Positions 1,021 through 24,176 of a DNA stretch of 64,000 nucleotides are shown piece after piece. Under the pieces are notes generated by a model. That model saw nothing but the letters and a program-made list of their open reading frames with translations, had not been told where the DNA came from and did not search any database. The DNA is taken from positions 1-64,000 of the IMG/VR virus record IMGVR_UViG_2974647559_000001. One strand, written 5' to 3'. The position numbers were made by a program, and so were the translations under genes. Positions within the stretch are counted from its first letter, which is position 1. The number at the start of each line of letters is the position of its first letter. The DNA comes from a virus (taxonomy: Duplodnaviria; Caudoviricetes).

Positions 1021-1039
1021 GAGGGCTTTTTAGCCCTCA
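1021..1039 (-). terminator. Hairpin between nrdA and nrdB (weak terminator or processing site)
   Basis: GAGGGC-ttttta-GCCCTC overlapping the nrdA stop. Confidence 0.35.
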
Positions 1040-3882
1040 CAGCTAAGACACTCATTAAACTCAATTTTAGCACGTACCGGTACACTGTTCAATGGTTTGT
1101 CACCACCAGTCCCAAGATTTGCTCTTGTCGCAGGTTTACTACGGCAGTAGTAAAAGGTCTTAACACCACTCAACCAACCTTTAATGTGTATATCAACCAT
1201 CTCTTGTAATGTAATGTCGTTAGGTACAAAAATGTTCAAACTTTGACTTTGGCATACATACTTCTGTCGTGCTGCTGCCAGTTCTACAATCCAAGAAGGA
1301 TTTATTTCTGTCGCTGTCTTAAACACTTTCTTGGCTTCATTATCCAACCAATCTAAGTGCTGTACACTACCTTCGTTCACAATTATGTCTTTCCATACCT
1401 CTGGTGTATTCTTGCCATAAGCATCCAGAACTTTCTCAAGATATTTATTCTTGATTAAGAAGCTACCTGCCCTGCCTTGTGCATTAAACGCATTAGCTGC
1501 CCAAGGTTCTATGGATGGGCTAGTACCCACCATACTACTACTGCTTGCATTTGGTGCGATGGCCAATAAGTGGCTATTCCTCATACCACTACCGTAACAA
1601 TCGTCGCACTCCCCTCGCTCTTTCGCAAGTTGTTTACTAGCCTCTACAGCACGTTCCTTTATTGCGCCGTACAGCCTATGTGTCCATTGTATAGCAGAAT
1701 TAAACCCCCCTGTCTCAAAAGCAATATCTTTGCTTTGTAAGAAAGAGTGCCAACCCAATGTACCTAAACCTATTGCACGTTCTTTACTTGCAGAGTGTAC
1801 CGCACGTTTAAGGTGTGGTGGGGCTAGGCGGATAAAATACTCTAACACGTTATCCAGCAACCTCACCAAGTCTTGCACAATCGTAGTGTCTTTCCATTCC
1901 TCATACTTCTCTAAATTAATAGAAGATAAGCAACACACTGCTGTGCGTTTGTCTGTAGTCCTTAATGTAATTTCAGAACACTGCCCTGTTAGAATACCGT
2001 TGAATACTCCCATACCGCGTTTGCTCTCGGTGAAGCAGTATGTATCATCATAACGACCATCATCCACCACTTCAGTAATCTTAACAAACTGTGTACTTTC
2101 CCTGTTAGGTTTGTGGTCGGTGATTACTAACCGTTTAGGGTTAAAACCTAAAACATGTAAGTTGTTTATACCTGTCTGCCCTATAAGTAACCTGTAAGCT
2201 TGTTTACAGTAAAACATTCCCAACTCGCCGCTACCATCGTTCAAAGGCATCAATCGTTCACCAGCTTCAGTAGATGCTGTTACCTTTGAAGATACACCTA
2301 ACGTCTGTAACATCATTTGCACTTCTTGTAAGAAACCTTGCTCAACACTTCCAACCTGAATGGATTGGGTTTGGCCGTTCCTAGCAATTGTTCCGTCTGA
2401 ATCACACAAACCTTCAAACCACTTGATGCGACTCTCAACATCATAATCTGAACTAGGGACAAAGAACTTATCTTTTAGTAAGTGACTATGACCATACTCA
2501 CGATCTAAGTTGTCTTGCACAGACCAGTTGTGAAAAATGTCACCTAGATACCGCTTCAATTCGCGCTTATCCCCGTACAAATAAATACGTTTACCTTGTT
2601 TTGTTAAGCAACCATCGCCTGAGTAAAAACCGTTAGCATATGGATGTAGCAACGATTCATTCCCTTCAATAACAGGGAAGTCACACTTAATCAGCTTATC
2701 TCCTGCTTTCAATTCATTAGCACGTTTCTCAACAACCCATCGATTACCAGAAGTAGGGTGGCGACAAGCGATGTAAAACTTGTGGTAAGGTGTGCAAGTT
2801 AATTCAAAACCAGCATTGGTTTTAATACTTAGTAATTTCTGGTTCTCACCAGTTTTTACTACAACCGTATCACTCCACTCTTGACCATTCCAAACTGTAA
2901 CTTTTTCACCTTCTAGTTCAGATATAACCTCATAACCATTAGTAGTAAGAATTTTAGTCTCTGGAGCAACACATAAATTACTTTGACTCACACTGTATAG
3001 TGGGTGTGTAATCCAATTTGGAATATTTCGGTTAACTGTGTCTTTGAACATGATATAAGGTTCCCCTGTCTCATATCGAATGTTCATTAATTCTTCCCAC
3101 ACTTCTCTTGCATTTAGAAATCGACCTGTAGCTCCATGTTTGGGATCTATCAGTTCGTAATCTTCCCCGTTTATAACCGACATCATAAACTTATCTGTAA
3201 TGTTTACAGCATTGTTTAAATTAAAACACTTTTTATTACTATCACCACCTACGGGGTTACGCATTTGCATAAAAGCTGCAATTTCTGGGTGGTCAATATC
3301 TAAATATGCTGCCATACTACCTCTGCGAGTGGCAGTCTGCTTATAACTAAGGGTATCAGCATCGTAACCCCTCAAGTGTGCCATAACCCCTGTAGACTTC
3401 TCATCGGGAGATCGATTGGATGCGTACACACCGACACCACCACCCATCATGCTGAGCCAAGCGGCTTCACTACGAGCTTCAACTAGACCTTCTTTTGTAT
3501 CCGGTATATAACTTAAGAAACAACTTATCGGCATACCATCAGGTTCTACATTCTCTTGTAGCCACTCAGAAGCATATTCAAAATTCTCTTTATCAAAAGA
3601 AGGCCATTCCACATTTACGGCATTACTAAGCACTGGGCTTGCAAAAGTAAACCAACCCTTAGAAGCGTAGTCATAAATACGTTGTGCAAAATCATAATCA
3701 CCAAAAGAGAAACATGTTGCTGCCCTAGCGAAACCCTCTTGAGGGGAAGTTTCATGGGATTTCTTGTAGAAGCCTTTTCCTGTTAAAAGAGCAAGTCCTT
3801 GCTCTGGAATAAACTTGTCTCGGCTATAATCAATGATAATACCTAGATACTCTTGTACCGGACTATAATCTTTAGCTACCAA
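1030..3882 (-). CDS. nrdA: Ribonucleotide reductase class Ia alpha subunit, intein-containing precursor
   Basis: ATCF, SCFL, GGGVG, SNL/CSEI, AIAPNASSS, KTFYY and C-terminal CLSCEG motifs. Confidence 0.95.
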   Translation of the reverse strand: MVAKDYSPVQEYLGIIIDYSRDKFIPEQGLALLTGKGFYKKSHETSPQEGFARAATCFSFGDYDFAQRIYDYASKGWFTFASPVLSNAVNVEWPSFDKENFEYASEWLQENVEPDGMPISCFLSYIPDTKEGLVEARSEAAWLSMMGGGVGVYASNRSPDEKSTGVMAHLRGYDADTLSYKQTATRRGSMAAYLDIDHPEIAAFMQMRNPVGGDSNKKCFNLNNAVNITDKFMMSVINGEDYELIDPKHGATGRFLNAREVWEELMNIRYETGEPYIMFKDTVNRNIPNWITHPLYSVSQSNLCVAPETKILTTNGYEVISELEGEKVTVWNGQEWSDTVVVKTGENQKLLSIKTNAGFELTCTPYHKFYIACRHPTSGNRWVVEKRANELKAGDKLIKCDFPVIEGNESLLHPYANGFYSGDGCLTKQGKRIYLYGDKRELKRYLGDIFHNWSVQDNLDREYGHSHLLKDKFFVPSSDYDVESRIKWFEGLCDSDGTIARNGQTQSIQVGSVEQGFLQEVQMMLQTLGVSSKVTASTEAGERLMPLNDGSGELGMFYCKQAYRLLIGQTGINNLHVLGFNPKRLVITDHKPNRESTQFVKITEVVDDGRYDDTYCFTESKRGMGVFNGILTGQCSEITLRTTDKRTAVCCLSSINLEKYEEWKDTTIVQDLVRLLDNVLEYFIRLAPPHLKRAVHSASKERAIGLGTLGWHSFLQSKDIAFETGGFNSAIQWTHRLYGAIKERAVEASKQLAKERGECDDCYGSGMRNSHLLAIAPNASSSSMVGTSPSIEPWAANAFNAQGRAGSFLIKNKYLEKVLDAYGKNTPEVWKDIIVNEGSVQHLDWLDNEAKKVFKTATEINPSWIVELAAARQKYVCQSQSLNIFVPNDITLQEMVDIHIKGWLSGVKTFYYCRSKPATRANLGTGGDKPLNSVPVRAKIEFNECLSCEG
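1981..2973 (-). mobile_element. Intein (331 aa) with LAGLIDADG homing endonuclease in NrdA
   Basis: SNL|CVAPETKIL...GVFNGILTGQ|CSEI; LAGLIDADG-like GFYSGDG and GLCDSDG. Confidence 0.93.
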
Positions 3883-4257
3883 CTACTGACCCTCCATTTG
3901 CTTAATCAGTTCTTCCACACCTTCTTGTGTATACAGAAACTTCTGTAGATTCTTAATACCACTTTTACGCCATACGTTGTCAGTACGTTCAAATCCTACA
4001 TACAACCAACCACCTTTCACTACATCACCTGTAATAGGGCTACGCATTGCTGTACTACTGTCTAATTCTTCTATATCATTCTTACGTGCCACATCTATAC
4101 CGTACAGATACAGCAAGGCTTTTGTTTGGCTATCTGTCAATGCCTTACCTGACTTGTTGAACACTTTAGCAAACAAACTATCTGCAATATCTCCGATATG
4201 TACTGAATAATCGTATGGTAAGAAGTCATCATCGTTAAATTGTTTATGTTTTGTCAT
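3883..4257 (-). CDS. Hypothetical protein
   Basis: 124-aa ORF tightly packed between thyX and nrdA. Confidence 0.75.
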   Translation of the reverse strand: MTKHKQFNDDDFLPYDYSVHIGDIADSLFAKVFNKSGKALTDSQTKALLYLYGIDVARKNDIEELDSSTAMRSPITGDVVKGGWLYVGFERTDNVWRKSGIKNLQKFLYTQEGVEELIKQMEGQ

Positions 4258-13507: not shown

Positions 13508-14185
13508 CTATTTATTTGTCCAATCTGTTTCGAGATTATACATCTCTCGTAAACGTTTTGCAACTCTTTCGTCCGGCTGCTCATCTGCAAGTTTTAAAGC
13601 GTGTTCATACTTCTCAGCCTTCCAACACAAATGAGCATCTAATTGATTAGGAAACCTACCTAAATAATCCCTCTTTCCCGTAAAAGGGTTTTTACAAATA
13701 GCCTGATAGATTTCTTTGTCCCTACTTTTATCGAGTGTGGTGCCAAGTAAAGATTGACCACGGCTTTTTGGTTTGCTGTTGATAAAACTGTTCAAACTTT
13801 TTGGGATGTACACGCACTTAGTTGGGGCATACTCTCTGTTTCCTTCAAATAAGAAATCCTTATCTAACTGACACTTTTGCCAATCTTTATTGGGTTGAGA
13901 ATCCACCCACCTAATAAAATCAGAAAAATATCTCCATTCTTCAGAAACAGAACAACCTTTGTATGTTGGGTAAATGTTTTGGTAATTAACACAAAAACAT
14001 CTTGTCAACATGTTCATCCAATCTGAATAATAAGGACAAATCCAAACATTTTTCTTTTTGCCGTCTATAGTACGACTTTTAGTCACAAAACCACTAGCGT
14101 CATTTATTGCCCATCCATATATCAGATTTTCCAAATTACCTCCTAACTTCCAAATTACCATCCTTGGTTTAGAATGATACACCAA
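13508..14185 (-). CDS. HNH-like free-standing homing endonuclease, paralogue 2 (start uncertain)
   Basis: CPYYSDW..RC..PTYKGCSV..WRYFSDF..LDKD; sits directly downstream of the polymerase gene. Confidence 0.75.
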   Translation of the reverse strand: MVYHSKPRMVIWKLGGNLENLIYGWAINDASGFVTKSRTIDGKKKNVWICPYYSDWMNMLTRCFCVNYQNIYPTYKGCSVSEEWRYFSDFIRWVDSQPNKDWQKCQLDKDFLFEGNREYAPTKCVYIPKSLNSFINSKPKSRGQSLLGTTLDKSRDKEIYQAICKNPFTGKRDYLGRFPNQLDAHLCWKAEKYEHALKLADEQPDERVAKRLREMYNLETDWTNK

Positions 14186-19120: not shown

Positions 19121-19285
19121 CTAAAACAATTTAATCTGGTCACTATCTTGACACATTTTAATGTAATTTTCAAGCTGTTTTATTTCATCATTTATCTCAA
19201 ATAATTCAGCTTGTAATTCACGTTTGGTATCTAATCGTAAAGCTAGTAGTGCATTAGCTTCTTGTCGGTTGTTTGGCGTTTTCAT
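19121..19285 (-). CDS. Small coiled-coil protein (54 aa, not in ORF track)
   Basis: MKTPNNRQEANALLALRLD...; ATGA overlap with upstream gene. Confidence 0.6.
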   Translation of the reverse strand: MKTPNNRQEANALLALRLDTKRELQAELFEINDEIKQLENYIKMCQDSDQIKLF

Positions 19286-19527
19286 TCTTCACCTCCTAAA
19301 TGTTCATACATATCACTAACACAATTCTTGCACAGTGTGCATGTTGTTGTCTGCTTATTACGTTCAATCTGCCAAGAGACACTTGGAATAAAATCTTTAT
19401 CTTCTTGTGTTGAGGAATATTTATTGCTACAACATAAGCAACGATAATACTCTACTTTATTAGCACCAATATGTTTGCTTATCACTTTCTTAGTGCGAAA
19501 ATCTACGTTGAATATTTGTGTGCTCAT
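19282..19527 (-). CDS. Putative zinc-finger protein
   Basis: CLCC and CTLC pairs. Confidence 0.6.
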   Translation of the reverse strand: MSTQIFNVDFRTKKVISKHIGANKVEYYRCLCCSNKYSSTQEDKDFIPSVSWQIERNKQTTTCTLCKNCVSDMYEHLGGEE

Positions 19528-19712
19528 TCGTCATCCTCATCCTGATCCCAATGTCTCCAATCCTTGTAATATACAAGACCCAATGCAATAAAGCAAGCAA
19601 TAGCCCCATATAATCCAAAAGTATGTTGCTGTGTAGATATTGCACCAATAATTCCTATCCACCCAATAGCAACACATATAATTATAATAGTGTTTATTAA
19701 ATAATATAGCAT
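19524..19712 (-). CDS. Small two-helix membrane protein
   Basis: Two hydrophobic stretches, acidic tail. Confidence 0.65.
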   Translation of the reverse strand: MLYYLINTIIIICVAIGWIGIIGAISTQQHTFGLYGAIACFIALGLVYYKDWRHWDQDEDDE

Positions 19713-19731: not shown

Positions 19732-19751
19732 ATAGGGGCTTACGCCCCTAT
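19732..19751 (-). terminator. Rho-independent terminator ending the NAD operon
   Basis: ATAGGGGC-ttac-GCCCCTAT, T-rich tail on minus strand. Confidence 0.8.
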
Positions 19752-19755
19752 ATAG

Positions 19756-21246
19756 TTAACTCCAAAGTCGATCACGGATAGTTGAGAATGTTTCTTCTTT
19801 GTAGAAGTTACCACTAGAGTAAACTACCTCCAGTAAACCTTCTTGCTCTTGTTCAAACGATTGTTGGTCGTGTAAAATAAAATTGTTACCTTCTTTTTCG
19901 ACACGTAATAGACCTTTGGCAGATTTCTTCATACCATCATCAGTTTTAGGGTCTTTAGATAGCTCATACAACTTACCGTCAACAATAGCAGCAGTGGCTT
20001 TCACGGCCATACCTGCACTATCTCGACTTAAATATTGACTAGTAAAACTTCCAACACCAAATACCACGTTTGTGGAGGCAAAACCTTTGCTTGCTAACCG
20101 TTTGAATATCTCTTTGGCACGTTCCAACGTAATAGAGTCACCATAAATTAAACCCACACGTTCATGTAAATGTTTAAAACCAAGTTCATTCTCAGTGCCA
20201 CCAAACACTTCCCATAAACACTCAACAGCACCTTTATATTCCGGTGAACCTTTTGGTGCGTCAATATCACCACACAACACTTTAACTGGGCAACCAGAGT
20301 CGGGGCGGAATACAACTTTAGCCAAACCAATTTCATTAACCTGCCGGTTAAGAATATCGTCTTTAAGTTCTGTAGCAAACTCAGTGACTACTCGGAAGAA
20401 GTCTAGTGTATCAGCAATAATAGATACAATACCAGTTGGGTAATCCTGTGTAATCCATTTACGATATGTTTCTAATTCACCATTCACCGCGATTCCAGTG
20501 GAAGCTAAACTATGTTCACTCGCGGGGACTGATGTAGCAATAAACTCTTTTGTAATATCAACACCATAGTACTTTTCCAAATATGGCAGTGCTGGAATTG
20601 TATCAGTACCATTACTTGACAGCAAGAACCCTGCTGCACAAGCTGCCGCATCTTCCCATCCACTCATGCCACGAAATTCAAAACCATGTATCTGGAACTG
20701 TGTACCATCAGTCGAACCCGTCGTCTTGGTTGCCCAATCATTAGTAAGCTTCCTGTACTCACGTATAATTGTAGCCACTGTAGCAGGCTTCCACAACTGT
20801 GCAGACAAGTATGTCTCTAGGTAATTAGTCAACCAAGCAAACCGATTGTCCGTGTTGCGAATAGTAAAGAATGGCACTTTAATATCTACGCGACTACCTT
20901 CTGGTAGAGACTTGACCTGAATAGGTAAATAGCCTAAATCATGTAGCTCTGCAAAGTGGTCCATTCCTACAGCACCAACCCCAAGGTAAGCATCAAATAG
21001 ACGCTTAGTTTCAGCTAGCACTTCTTCTTTATTGCGACTGAAAAACTCCTTATCCCATAGGTTATGCATTTGTTTCAGTACAGCTTGCAGACCAAACCAG
21101 ACAATCTTATCATCAAAATCTTCGTGGTTTACTGGTAAATATTTACTAGAACGTGGTGTCATGTTCGAGTAAATGCTTTCAGTACCTTCGGTCATAAAAC
21201 CTTTGTGACTTAGTTTGTAGCTGTCTGTTAAAAATAATGGGTTCAT
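19756..21246 (-). CDS. NAMPT-family protein; probable Namat of NARP1
   Basis: TDSYKLSH, HGFEFRG, PASEHS, FRPDSG, LIYGDSIT, KKSAKG. Confidence 0.9.
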   Translation of the reverse strand: MNPLFLTDSYKLSHKGFMTEGTESIYSNMTPRSSKYLPVNHEDFDDKIVWFGLQAVLKQMHNLWDKEFFSRNKEEVLAETKRLFDAYLGVGAVGMDHFAELHDLGYLPIQVKSLPEGSRVDIKVPFFTIRNTDNRFAWLTNYLETYLSAQLWKPATVATIIREYRKLTNDWATKTTGSTDGTQFQIHGFEFRGMSGWEDAAACAAGFLLSSNGTDTIPALPYLEKYYGVDITKEFIATSVPASEHSLASTGIAVNGELETYRKWITQDYPTGIVSIIADTLDFFRVVTEFATELKDDILNRQVNEIGLAKVVFRPDSGCPVKVLCGDIDAPKGSPEYKGAVECLWEVFGGTENELGFKHLHERVGLIYGDSITLERAKEIFKRLASKGFASTNVVFGVGSFTSQYLSRDSAGMAVKATAAIVDGKLYELSKDPKTDDGMKKSAKGLLRVEKEGNNFILHDQQSFEQEQEGLLEVVYSSGNFYKEETFSTIRDRLWS

Positions 21247-21255
21247 ATATTCTCC

Positions 21256-22062
21256 TTATTTACCTAAATTAAAATTCAACACATCAGTTTGGTTTACATA
21301 ATTACCAACTGTGTGCCAACAATAGATATTATCTATCTTGTCTTTGAAGATGTCAAGCCCTTTTGCTGCAATTAAATGTGTTACGTATAAATCAACAATA
21401 GCTCCTAGCGACTTAAGCTTCTCTGCTAGCGGAATGAAGGTGCCGCCCGCATCCATTAAATCATCTACAATCAACAACTTACAACCAGTTAAGTCAACAT
21501 CAGTGTCTAGTGCTGTCTCAACAATACGTCCCGTAGAAACATCCCGCACCTTAGTTGCAGTGATTACTGGCATACCTAACTCATATATCTTCTTTAATGC
21601 ACCTTTATCTGGTGCAACCACATAGTCATACTGCTTTAAATTATGTACCACTTCACTAATTGCAATATACTGAGGCATATCATTTAAACCACAATAGTCT
21701 ACCCAATCTGGATTATGCGAATCTACAGTTCGTACTTCATCAAACCCTTGAGTAATAATCTCAAGGAACACCTCTAGTGGTAGAGGATTGCCGTGTTCAA
21801 ACACCCTGTCTGCTCTAGCAAAAGGACAGTACGGAATGTTTAAACCAACCTTATATTCTGTGCTGCTATTAGCATAACCTAGCGCACTCCTAACCAGCAG
21901 AACTTCCATCAAGATATCTTTTACTGGTGTAATTGGGTCAACTGTAACCCAAGCAGTTTTAAATTGTGGTGGGCAATCAATTAGTTTACAAGTATTGGCA
22001 CCATCACTAAATTCTAACCAATCTATTTTGATTGGTTTGTTGTCAATTGTTAAACGAATCAT
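21256..22062 (-). CDS. PRPP-synthetase-family protein; probable Adps of NARP1
   Basis: FSDG, PYCPFARADR, VAPDKGA, IVDDLMDAGGT. Confidence 0.88.
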   Translation of the reverse strand: MIRLTIDNKPIKIDWLEFSDGANTCKLIDCPPQFKTAWVTVDPITPVKDILMEVLLVRSALGYANSSTEYKVGLNIPYCPFARADRVFEHGNPLPLEVFLEIITQGFDEVRTVDSHNPDWVDYCGLNDMPQYIAISEVVHNLKQYDYVVAPDKGALKKIYELGMPVITATKVRDVSTGRIVETALDTDVDLTGCKLLIVDDLMDAGGTFIPLAEKLKSLGAIVDLYVTHLIAAKGLDIFKDKIDNIYCWHTVGNYVNQTDVLNFNLGK

Positions 22063-22566
22063 TTAACCCTCCAACTTATAAATAACAACATCTTTAACAT
22101 AAGGAACTACCAGATGCTCAATCAATTCTAACACAATATTCCAATCTCCACCAGCACGATCTGACGCCATTTTGTATGGGACACCAATTGTAACATTAAG
22201 TGGATAGATAGGCCATTCTTCATCCAATTCAAACTGTATTACACGGTAACAATGAGATAATGCAGAAGCTATAGCACCATAACTTACATAGCGCTTTTTA
22301 TTATACCCATAAAACTCTTGCCCTATCAGATTGAGAACTCTCCCACCTTCGATACAATCACCTAAGAAATGCTTAAGTGTCCTGCGTTCTTGTAACATAT
22401 CATAACGTCTACGGTAAGCTAAATAGGCATCTGGAATACGAGCCTTAATCTCCTTAGCTACACCACTTCCCATAACACCTTGTGCGTTACAACAATGTGC
22501 AATAAAGTCCACCTCACCATCAAGCAAAGCATCTACAACATTTCCAGTTCTGTGAATAATACCCAT
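22063..22566 (-). CDS. Macrodomain (ADP-ribose binding/hydrolase) protein
   Basis: AHCCNAQGVMGSGVAKEIK, PYKMASDRAGGDW; ATG at 22566 after GGAG. Confidence 0.85.
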   Translation of the reverse strand: MGIIHRTGNVVDALLDGEVDFIAHCCNAQGVMGSGVAKEIKARIPDAYLAYRRRYDMLQERRTLKHFLGDCIEGGRVLNLIGQEFYGYNKKRYVSYGAIASALSHCYRVIQFELDEEWPIYPLNVTIGVPYKMASDRAGGDWNIVLELIEHLVVPYVKDVVIYKLEG

Positions 22567-22577
22567 ATCACCCTCCA

Positions 22578-22683
22578 ATTTAACCTATCTACAAGCGCCT
22601 ACAATCAATTATACAGTCATACCCTAACCAACGTACTACTTACCCCATAAAACCTCTCATAGACGCTCTACGGTTGTTTAAAT
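22578..22683. repeat. ~106-bp intergenic pseudo-palindrome E1
   Basis: ATTTAAC...CAACGTAC (offset 51)...GTTTAAAT. Confidence 0.65.
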
Positions 22684-22685
22684 GG

Positions 22686-22937
22686 CTATTTCAAGATACC
22701 TTTCACTTTAAGGTAGTCTATAAACTCAGCCAATTTGGTCAAATTCGCCGTCCTTCTACCATGGGAATAGAACTCAAAATCCTCTGGATTACTCATTAAG
22801 ACTTCATTTGCTGTTTCTAGCAAGTCATTTAGTGTCGGTGGTAATCCAATATAAGGAGAACCATCCTTAGTAAAATAACGAGTCTTTCCTTGGTTATCTA
22901 AACTACTGAAACCAACCCATCTGATGTCTGATGACAT
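22686..22937 (-). CDS. Hypothetical protein
   Basis: 83-aa ORF with RBS. Confidence 0.65.
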   Translation of the reverse strand: MSSDIRWVGFSSLDNQGKTRYFTKDGSPYIGLPPTLNDLLETANEVLMSNPEDFEFYSHGRRTANLTKLAEFIDYLKVKGILK

Positions 22938-22948
22938 ATTATTTATCC

Positions 22949-23317
22949 TTATTTCACTAAACTAGCTGCATATTCTAGTAAATAAACGCGAGGTGCTAAC
23001 CAGATTTGTAACCAATCAATTGTAAACATAGGACATGCAACTACATACATCACAATGTTTAGCCCACCAAGAGGTACCAATAGTGCTTCAAGTGTGTCTA
23101 TTTCTTTCCAAAGCCATCTGGTAAATTTATAACTTACAAACAATAGCAAACAAGAACTAAAGAAAGACAACAAACTCTCAGTAAACTTCCATGTTAGTAA
23201 TTCCTGAACAACCAATGGGATTTCATCAAATGCTGCACTACCAATCTCAGCAGCCTTATTAACTAAGTTTAATAATACATCTTCCGCGCGTTGTTGTAAT
23301 TCTGATTTATCACTCAT
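22949..23317 (-). CDS. Membrane protein (start likely at MSDKSE)
   Basis: Two hydrophobic helices; AGGAG before 23317. Confidence 0.7.
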   Translation of the reverse strand: MSDKSELQQRAEDVLLNLVNKAAEIGSAAFDEIPLVVQELLTWKFTESLLSFFSSCLLLFVSYKFTRWLWKEIDTLEALLVPLGGLNIVMYVVACPMFTIDWLQIWLAPRVYLLEYAASLVK

Positions 23318-23327
23318 AACATTCTCC

Positions 23328-23537
23328 TTATTTACCAATTCTAATATAATTAACACCAGTTGCTGATTCTAACTGCACCACAACACCATTGTCAACTCTA
23401 ACATTCACAAAACTGCCATTTATTTTTGCTTCCTGCCAGTCAATGTGTTGATTCACCTGTCTTGAATACTCCCAACTAATCTTCTGGTAGTCTGTACGGT
23501 CTATATGATATCGGAAGTTACCTATAAATGCAAACAT
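23328..23537 (-). CDS. Hypothetical protein
   Basis: 69-aa ORF in operon. Confidence 0.6.
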   Translation of the reverse strand: MFAFIGNFRYHIDRTDYQKISWEYSRQVNQHIDWQEAKINGSFVNVRVDNGVVVQLESATGVNYIRIGK

Positions 23538-23773
23538 TATTTAGCCTCCATTAAAACTATTTCTGTTGTATAACTAACTGAACCAATCTTTTGCGATAAG
23601 CCTAACACACGTTGATAATCTTCGCAAACTTTATCTACCACTTCGTTGTAATTTAATTCCCTATCTGATATTACATCAAACTCCAACACCTTATCGTGGT
23701 TGTCAAACTCATTGAAGTAGTGAGTGAGTGTGCCAGTGTATTTGTACATTTTTTGTGATTTAATTGTTGGCAA
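23537..23773 (-). CDS. Hypothetical protein
   Basis: 78-aa ORF in operon. Confidence 0.6.
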   Translation of the reverse strand: MPTIKSQKMYKYTGTLTHYFNEFDNHDKVLEFDVISDRELNYNEVVDKVCEDYQRVLGLSQKIGSVSYTTEIVLMEAK

Positions 23774-24176
23774 TTTGTTTCTCCTGTAAAACCAATATCA
23801 AACAGCAGGCTATTGCGCGCAGTGGGTTTTTATCACCAAACTGCTCACCATCAGCGCAAATACCGTCAATCTCATCAAATGCGCTAACATCTAAATAGTT
23901 TTCATATTTTACAGCTAAATAGCCATCACGAAGATGAATGGCGCTAATGCCATGCTCAAACACCAGAGGCATTATGTCTGAAACGTCACGGCAATATGCG
24001 GGGCATTCCCTATAGTATGACCCTTCGGGGTATTTTATCACGTTACTATAAATACCATCACCCGTATCAACATAGTGCTGCCCAATAAATTCTGCCTTGG
24101 GGTTTAGTAATAATTCAAGTTCTTTATTTACCTGCGCGTCACTCATACCCCGCAACTGTTCTTTTGTGTGTTTCAT
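23760..24176 (-). CDS. NinX/DUF2591-like protein
   Basis: DIMPLVFEHGIS...NPLRAIACC motifs. Confidence 0.65.
   Translation of the reverse strand: MKHTKEQLRGMSDAQVNKELELLLNPKAEFIGQHYVDTGDGIYSNVIKYPEGSYYRECPAYCRDVSDIMPLVFEHGISAIHLRDGYLAVKYENYLDVSAFDEIDGICADGEQFGDKNPLRAIACCLILVLQEKQIANN

Follow-up and report, generated by a model that had tools for sequence, protein, structure and literature searches.

A macrodomain gene heads a probable NARP1-AP operon for NAD+ reconstitution in an uncultured marine-type phage

What do three tightly packed genes on the minus strand of an uncultured, marine-type myovirus do? We analysed a window of 64,000 nucleotides from its 84,608-bp contig (CheckV, 100% complete), in which positions 19,756 to 22,566 encode a macrodomain protein (167 aa), a PRPS-like protein (268 aa), and a NAMPT-like protein (496 aa). 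They are probably a NARP1-AP operon (the name stands for NAD+ reconstitution pathway 1 plus an associated phosphatase) with the gene order Adpp-Adps-Namat. Our analysis itself established which genes are present, how the operon is built, that the proteins are homologous to tested ones, and that the key residues of those are conserved; the activities of all three enzymes are taken from the literature on their homologues. The locus is one more case of a counter-defence already known and not a new mechanism: the ADP-ribose (ADPR) release step, which a sequence-only reading of this DNA had proposed, had already been described as NARP1-AP in a preprint of January 2026 (Osterman et al., bioRxiv 10.64898/2026.01.28.702374). 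If the assignment is right, the phages with an extended NAD+ rebuilding pathway now include an uncultured myovirus of marine type, and the locus indicates that the phosphatase gene can stand first in the operon.

The genes are contiguous and co-directional and are followed by a terminator-like structure, in agreement with the sequence-only reading, whose coordinates coincide exactly with the ends of the open reading frames. The Adpp-like macrodomain gene (22,063–22,566, minus strand), whose product is a predicted ADPR-1''-phosphate phosphatase, has a TAA stop codon that immediately abuts the ATG of the gene for Adps, the PRPS-like ADP-ribose diphosphokinase (21,256–22,062, minus strand). A gap of only 9 nt, containing an AAGGAG site, separates the latter from the NAMPT-like Namat gene on the same strand (19,756–21,246). 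The macrodomain frame was listed as 22,063–22,578 with a TTG start; an alternative ATG at 22,566 lies behind a GGAGGG ribosome-binding site and is likely to be the true start, giving 167 aa, and the closest database homologue of the macrodomain protein (P0001) is 99% identical and likewise 167 aa long. The adjacent Adps and Namat genes constitute the pair by which NARP1 is recognized in a phage genome, and the macrodomain gene sits directly upstream of Adps, within the distance of at most two genes from the NARP1 pair that defines NARP1-AP.

A terminator-like hairpin, identified by pattern scan and fold energy, closes the operon at 19,732–19,751 on the minus strand. Read from 19,751 to 19,732, it starts 4 nt past the Namat stop, forms 8 bp (5 of them GC pairs) around a GUAA loop, and is followed by UAUUUUAAGG; the centroid fold has an energy of −14.5 kcal/mol, with z = −2.26 relative to shuffled sequences. 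Read-through past the hairpin is possible, since its U-tract is weak and only 20 nt lie before the start of the next small gene. On the other side, the 119-nt spacer 5' of the macrodomain gene (22,567–22,685, minus strand, read from the sequence) holds a perfect TATAAT at 22,613–22,608, ∼41 nt 5' of the ATG, which is a weak candidate for the operon promoter only: a consensus scan found no full −35/−10 pair in this spacer and, overall, gave fewer hits than in shuffled sequence. The small flanking ORFs (19,282–19,712 and 22,686–24,176) matched no Pfam families, and their only PHROG matches were phrog_3054 and phrog_444, both of unknown function.

How would these genes rebuild NAD+? Host SIR2, TIR, SEFIR, and DSR effectors would cleave NAD+ to nicotinamide and ADPR, and host RES-domain (aRES) effectors would cleave it to nicotinamide together with ADPR-1''-phosphate (hereafter ADPR-1P), from which the macrodomain protein would strip the 1''-phosphate to yield ADPR. 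Adps is predicted to convert ADPR and ATP to ADPR-PP, and Namat would then join nicotinamide and ADPR-PP into NAD+ directly, so that an NMN adenylyltransferase (NMNAT) would not be needed. By this scheme, the host of the phage would be expected to carry an aRES-type system. The precedent comes from the Vibrio phage Gary: ADPR-1''-phosphate is the product of NAD+ cleavage (phosphorolysis) by RES-domain effectors, core NARP1 is unable to use it, purified Gary Adpp converts it to ADPR, and the operon of three genes from Gary overcomes defence by aRES, with Adpp needed specifically against aRES; such a macrodomain occurs in ∼15% of NARP1 operons (bioRxiv 10.64898/2026.01.28.702374). The lack of an NMN adenylyltransferase, previously remarked for the window, extends to the whole genome: neither PF01467 (NMNAT fold) nor PF00293 (Nudix) had a match at E ≤ 0.01 in the complete 84.6-kb sequence, and both searches were positive in 14/14 control genomes. 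NARP2 and NARP3, which use NadR- or Nudix-type NMNATs, were rejected as candidates because no NMNAT or Nudix gene is present. The NARP3 paper describes a NadR and PnuC pair that is unrelated to the genes found here.

The operon resembles the Gary NARP1-AP genes (Adps, KNV71 gp181; Adpp, KNV71_gp137; Namat, KNV71_gp136) in having three contiguous, co-directional genes, no NMNAT, common macrodomain motifs, and the same protein families: PHROG 619 for Adps (E 2e-62), PHROG 335, annotated “phosphatase,” for the macrodomain protein (E 8e-34), and PHROG 448 for Namat. It differs in gene order, which is Adps-Adpp-Namat in Gary, and in identities of only 29% for the macrodomain protein (BLASTP, E 2e-10), 38% for Adps (E 5e-45), and 39% for Namat (E 2e-111). 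The phage lineages differ as well, Gary being a Thalassavirus, whereas the terminase of the window phage is nearest (45%) to that of Alteromonas phage PT11-V22. Pseudoalteromonas phage PH357 (KX822733) has tightly packed macrodomain, predicted Adps, and predicted Namat genes in the window order (APC44464, APC44463, and APC44462), and the same order recurs in three IMG/VR loci (L012, L023, and L044). The PH357 macrodomain is 42.5% identical to that of the window, but it is annotated only as hypothetical and its loop reads CGLGGGDW. The core NARP1 operons of SpβL1, a Bacillus phage, and ICP1, a Vibrio phage, have no macrodomain gene; the catalytic and substrate-contact residues of their enzymes are conserved in the window proteins.

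What does the macrodomain protein itself resemble? Pfam Macro recognized it with only 17 bits, under the cut-off, and its profile aligned with Gary Adpp over the full length (hhalign; 148 columns, 99.5% probability, E 6e-23). Among its motifs—H24-C-C-N27, M32-G-S-G35, N79...Q83, and S135-D-R-A-G-G-D-W142—the patterns H-x-C-N, MG-x-G, N...Q, and AGG-x-W are common to Gary Adpp. In the second phosphate-binding loop, SDRAGGDW in the window carries a one-residue insertion relative to CGLAGGDW in Gary, and the D136-R137 pair, almost invariant in the window macrodomain subfamily, is missing from Gary Adpp. The top Foldseek matches of the AlphaFold model (pLDDT 92.8) were BT1257, DarG, Poa1p, and TARG1, each with a probability of 1.00 and a TM of 0.65–0.72. 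Yeast Poa1p (PDB 6LFQ), an ADP-ribose 1''-phosphate phosphatase, shares the macrodomain fold (Foldseek E 1e-8) and matches by profile (E 3e-10), and its H23, a residue mutated by the Poa1p depositors (PDB 6LFS), is conserved as H24; the two proteins differ in that they are only ∼20% identical and in that S30 and F152 of Poa1p are V31 and A138 in the window. Poa1p clears a by-product of tRNA splicing and is not known to serve in NAD+ salvage. By both sequence profile and fold, Poa1p, DarG, and TARG1 lie at much the same distance from the window protein, with BT1257 and SCO6735 nearer still; these near-equal matches mean that neither profile nor fold fixes its substrate.

Could the macrodomain protein instead be a de-ADP-ribosylase, acting on DNA, RNA, or protein modified by host ARTs (DarT-like or others) and passing the freed ADPR to NARP1? 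Fold and profile place it in the TARG1, DarG, and SCO6735 class, and SCO6735 itself carries Gln in place of the catalytic lysine and is reported to hydrolyse ADP-ribosylation of proteins. DarG is the sole NCBIfam match, though its 21.8 bits fall far short of the cut-off of 250. Homologues are also found in complete phages that lack Namat, where an ADPR-1P phosphatase would seemingly be of little use and a de-ADP-ribosylase would work alone. Even so, we regard this possibility as unlikely. The DarG and TARG1 macrodomains (PDB 5M3E, 5M3I, and 4J5R) differ from the window protein in their catalytic lysine, which we take to be K80 in DarG and K84 in TARG1: Q83, invariant in the window family, occupies the position of the Mycobacterium tuberculosis DarG lysine in the profile alignment. 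In addition, the window macrodomain has neither a DarT partner nor the C-terminal DarG domain. The abutting stop and start codons at the Adps junction speak for a step that feeds in a small molecule, the ADPR freed from macromolecules would be tiny relative to the NAD+ pool, and the only tested member of the family, Gary Adpp, is an ADPR-1P phosphatase required specifically against aRES (bioRxiv 10.64898/2026.01.28.702374). The sequence-only reading had cast the macrodomain as reversing DarT-like or protein ADP-ribosylation and feeding ADPR onward. The macrodomain does seem to act as an accessory that supplies the pathway with ADPR, but the reversal, with ADP-ribosylated macromolecules as the source, finds no support, given Q83 and the activity of the Gary homologue.

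Macrodomains are often promiscuous, and the protein might yield ADPR from a different small derivative, such as O-acetyl-ADPR, ADPR-2''-phosphate, Appr>p products, or an ADPR-based immune signal; this we hold to be quite improbable. Feeders of NARP1 do have a precedent in the RyR-domain RyDEP proteins, whose cleavage of 2'/3' cADPR feeds the synthesis of NAD+ (bioRxiv 10.64898/2026.05.28.727677), and the D136-R137 pair could alter specificity relative to Gary Adpp. However, the DR form also occurs in Vibrio phages 184E37-2 and 1.063.O, inside operons ordered Adps, macrodomain, Namat as in Gary, and the phage has no Tpt1/KptA (PF01885) or RNA ligase (PF09414) gene with which to generate Appr>p or Appr-1''p. 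The absence of these two genes also led us to reject RNA repair by the phage as a source of ADPR-1''P.

For the other two genes of the predicted NARP1-AP operon, the earlier identification of a PRPS homologue and a NAMPT homologue with Adps and Namat of NARP1 is borne out by PHROGs, scores, and conserved residues alike. The ICP1 Adps, which like that of Gary has been characterised experimentally, belongs to PHROG 619 and is 37% identical to the window Adps. Ten residues that bind ADPR or ATP or take part in catalysis in the ICP1 structure—F18, R87, F92, H121, D161, K185, D212, D213, D216, and F221 (PMC13586617)—are all kept in the window protein and are invariant across an eight-sequence alignment that includes it. 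By comparison, TIGR01251, the NCBIfam model for PRPS, gave 88 bits where its cut-off is 113, the equivalog models all fell far under their cut-offs, the Pfam PRPS domains were likewise under cut-off, and the best PDB PRPS reached only E 1e-14. Adps homologues share a remodelled PP loop, at C215-S220 in ICP1 (PMC13586617). It reads M-D-A-G-G-T in the window, C-D-G-A-A-S in ICP1, and S-D-G-G-A-S in Gary, and only the Asp is common to all eight sequences. To our eye, the window loop is presumably somewhat closer to canonical PRPS than the ICP1 loop is. Taken by its residues and scores, the predicted product is an Adps and not a PRPS.

The NAMPT-like protein found its best PDB matches in SpβL1 Namat (9W5X/9W5W; 438 bits, E 3e-130), and human, rodent, and bacterial NAMPT structures scored ∼190 bits, under half of that value. 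Of the 20 residues that contact NAD+ in SpβL1 Namat, 16 are identical here. Namat enzymes are diagnosed by a helix motif, GSX-Phi-X-Phi-X-Phi-TRD, with aromatics that stack on adenine, and by a clamp loop whose stacking position is Arg, Lys, or Tyr—R40 in SpβL1, and in Bas63 a Lys together with the next residue (PMC12774641). The window protein has GSFTSQYLSRD at residues 399–409, with both clamp aromatics present (F401 at position 3 and Y405 at position 7); it deviates in having Ser, not an aromatic, at position 5 and in ending in SRD, not TRD. Its K35 aligns with SpβL1 R40 and is followed by Y36, a Lys-Tyr arrangement of the Bas63 type. We therefore assign the gene as a predicted Namat and not a NAMPT. 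That the pair is an ordinary PRPS and NAMPT, making PRPP and then NMN for a host NMN adenylyltransferase to complete, is highly improbable: database annotations use these names, the NAMPT-like protein passes NCBIfam NF006629, and Namat keeps some PRPP activity in vitro (PMC12774641), but scores and motifs assign the two proteins to the clades of Adps and Namat, and the PRPS-like one is under the PRPS family cut-off. With such residue tests, the labels “ribose-phosphate pyrophosphokinase,” “nicotinamide phosphoribosyltransferase,” and “phosphatase” on phages of this kind can give way to Adps, Namat, and Adpp, respectively.

How closely is the macrodomain family tied to NARP1? It is not bound to the pathway: Adps and Namat lay within 5 kb of a macrodomain homologue in 12 of 40 IMG/VR loci, a sample found with a DRAGG-W motif seed and thus biased to the window macrodomain subfamily. 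Four complete phage genomes carrying a homologue contained no Namat. On the macrodomain tree, adjacency to NARP1 is scattered (10 changes observed vs. 11.4 expected from shuffling). No common partner gene stands next to “solo” macrodomain genes of other phages, whose neighbours are variously genes for a methyltransferase, an exonuclease, or a nucleotidyltransferase and genes of unknown function, among others. The family may thus have a second role, with its Namat-free relatives as a loose end. The Namat-free complete genomes, the scattered adjacency, and the Asp-Arg pair not seen in Gary leave room for a job of its own beyond NARP1, either de-ADP-ribosylating nucleic acids or proteins or destroying an ADPR-based signal, which we consider unlikely. 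If it were true, a single operon would act against both of two NAD+-based types of defence, as the sequence-only reading had supposed. The puzzle raised is why phages without genes for rebuilding NAD+ keep the same macrodomain family.

Nucleotide similarity to cultured phages was confined to a 300-nt stretch, ∼74% identical to two Alishewanella phages. In the NARP1 operons of these phages, an endonuclease V-like gene (phrog_1183) occupies the place where the macrodomain gene would sit.

How is the three-gene operon of the window built, and which enzymes does it encode? The minus strand from 19756 to 22566 is occupied by three ORFs: a macrodomain gene (22063-22566), a PRPS-like gene (21256-22062), and a NAMPT-like gene (19756-21246). 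For the macrodomain gene, the most probable start codon is the ATG at 22566, which follows a GGAGGG site; this start gives a protein of 167 aa, the same length as its nearest database homologue. Its stop codon directly adjoins the start codon of the PRPS-like gene, and 9 nt separate the latter from the NAMPT-like gene. A GC-rich 8-bp hairpin (folding energy -14.5 kcal/mol, z -2.26) lies 4 nt 3' of the NAMPT-like stop codon and is followed by UAUUUUAAGG; its U-tract is weak. ORFs, junctions, and hairpin agree in all points with the sequence-only reading of three contiguous, co-directional genes closed by a terminator. A strongly hydrophobic 62-aa ORF (19524-19712, minus strand) with its own AAGGAG site begins 20 nt past this terminator-like hairpin; a search for a family match found none, and the ORF may be co-transcribed with the operon through read-through.

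The PRPS-like protein is, judged by its residues and family, the Adps of NARP1. It belongs to PHROG 619, as do the Adps proteins of Vibrio phages Gary and ICP1 (38% and 37% identity, respectively), and scores 88 bits against the NCBI PRPS profile, below the cut-off of 113. In the ICP1 Adps structure (PMC13586617), F18, R87, and F92 form the ADPR adenine site; H121, D161, D212, D213, and D216 the acceptor site; K185 is the catalytic lysine; and F221 lies over the ATP base. All of these residues are invariant in 8/8 aligned phage proteins, including the window's, while the PP loop varies (M-D-A-G-G-T in the window). The closest Adps, at 63% identity, is that of Alishewanella phage Slicko01, in which an endonuclease V/DenV-like gene (phrog_1183; 3616-4008 of locus L001) directly upstream of Adps takes the place that the macrodomain gene has in the window. 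By the same kind of comparison, the NAMPT-like protein is Namat: its score is 438 bits with the SpβL1 Namat crystal structures as against ~190 bits with NAMPTs, 16 of the 20 SpβL1 NAD+-contact residues are kept, and both adenine-stacking aromatics and the Namat-specific helix motif (GSFTSQYLSRD) are present. In the clamp loop, K35-Y36 occupies the place of SpβL1 R40. PHROG membership, residues, and scores bear out the earlier identification of NARP1.

What does the macrodomain add? The RES-domain defence proteins aRES convert NAD+ to nicotinamide and ADPR-1''-phosphate, which NARP1 cannot use; a Poa1p-like macrodomain gene is present in 15% of NARP1 operons, Gary Adpp converts ADPR-1''-phosphate to ADPR, and with all three genes the Gary operon (NARP1-AP) abolishes aRES defence (Osterman et al., bioRxiv, January 2026, 10.64898/2026.01.28.702374). 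The window macrodomain is barely detected by Pfam (17 bits) and matches PHROG 335 "phosphatase" at 8e-34. Its predicted structure is confident (pLDDT 92.8, from a 52-homologue alignment); profile and fold place it in the class of BT1257, SCO6735, DarG, Poa1p, and TARG1, among which neither discriminates. Gary Adpp falls in the same PHROG, aligns over its full length both to the window macrodomain (29% identity, E 2e-10) and to the family profile (99.5% probability, E 6e-23), and shares the motifs H-x-C-N, MG-x-G, N...Q, and AGG-x-W; Poa1p H23 aligns to H24 of the window macrodomain. Q83, invariant in the family, stands where DarG has its catalytic lysine, and this makes a glycohydrolase mechanism like that of DarG or TARG1 less likely. 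The macrodomain was earlier proposed to free ADPR from ADP-ribosylated macromolecules and feed it to NARP1; the feeder logic appears to hold, while Q83 and the Adpp homology disfavour that substrate. The operon is thus probably a well-formed NARP1-AP, another member of an arrangement described in 2026.

The order macrodomain-Adps-Namat recurs in Pseudoalteromonas phage PH357 and three IMG/VR loci, whereas Gary, Quinn, Cody, and Vibrio phage 184E37-2 have Adps-macrodomain-Namat. The second phosphate loop of the window subfamily contains Ser-Asp-Arg and is one residue longer (the DR form), where Gary Adpp reads Cys-Gly-Leu; Vibrio phages 184E37-2 and 1.063.O carry the DR form in Gary-ordered operons, with Adps before macrodomain and Namat. 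In 1.063.O, a gene for an HNH homing endonuclease and a small ORF (2722-3060 of locus L007) separate Adps from the macrodomain gene; insertion of mobile elements is evidently compatible with the NARP1-AP operon.

The macrodomain family also occurs outside NARP1. Adps and Namat lie within 5 kb of the homologue in 12/40 IMG/VR loci, a rough fraction because the DR motif was the seed for sampling and some "solo" loci are short contigs. Four complete genomes with direct terminal repeats (L010, L011, L016, and L027) encode a homologue (38-48% identical) and no Namat or NAMPT gene anywhere; the same search picked up a Namat relative of 34% identity in a different record, which shows that it can detect such genes. 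On the maximum-likelihood macrodomain tree, NARP1 adjacency requires 10 changes vs. 11.4 in shuffles, clustering no more than by chance. Homologues in Namat-less genomes imply some use outside NAD+ reconstitution, so a NARP1-independent role, de-ADP-ribosylation included, is possible, though we consider it improbable.

A source of ADPR-1''-phosphate in the phage's own tRNA repair is unlikely, because its genome lacks both Tpt1 and RNA ligase. RNA ligase genes lie within a few kilobases of NARP1 or NARP1-AP in several cultured phages: Thalassavirus phages (L004, L005, and L006) and Slicko01. The virus contig to which the window belongs is 84.6 kb (complete by CheckV). Its terminase shares 45% identity with the terminase of Alteromonas phage PT11-V22 and 34% with the terminases of several Erwinia phages. 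Neither an NMN adenylyltransferase fold nor a Nudix domain was found in the whole genome, extending the earlier observation that the window has no NMN adenylyltransferase. Around the operon lie the terminase gene and genes for a T7-like primase-helicase, DNA polymerase, exonuclease, and ribonucleotide reductase. The reductase large-subunit ORF (1030-3882, minus strand; 950 aa) has its PHROG match split into two stretches, and residues 275-535 give a weak terminase-like match; an intein or other insertion might account for this. An HNH endonuclease gene (phrog_953; 13508-14185, minus strand) lies between the genes for DNA polymerase and a Gp2.5-like ssDNA-binding protein.
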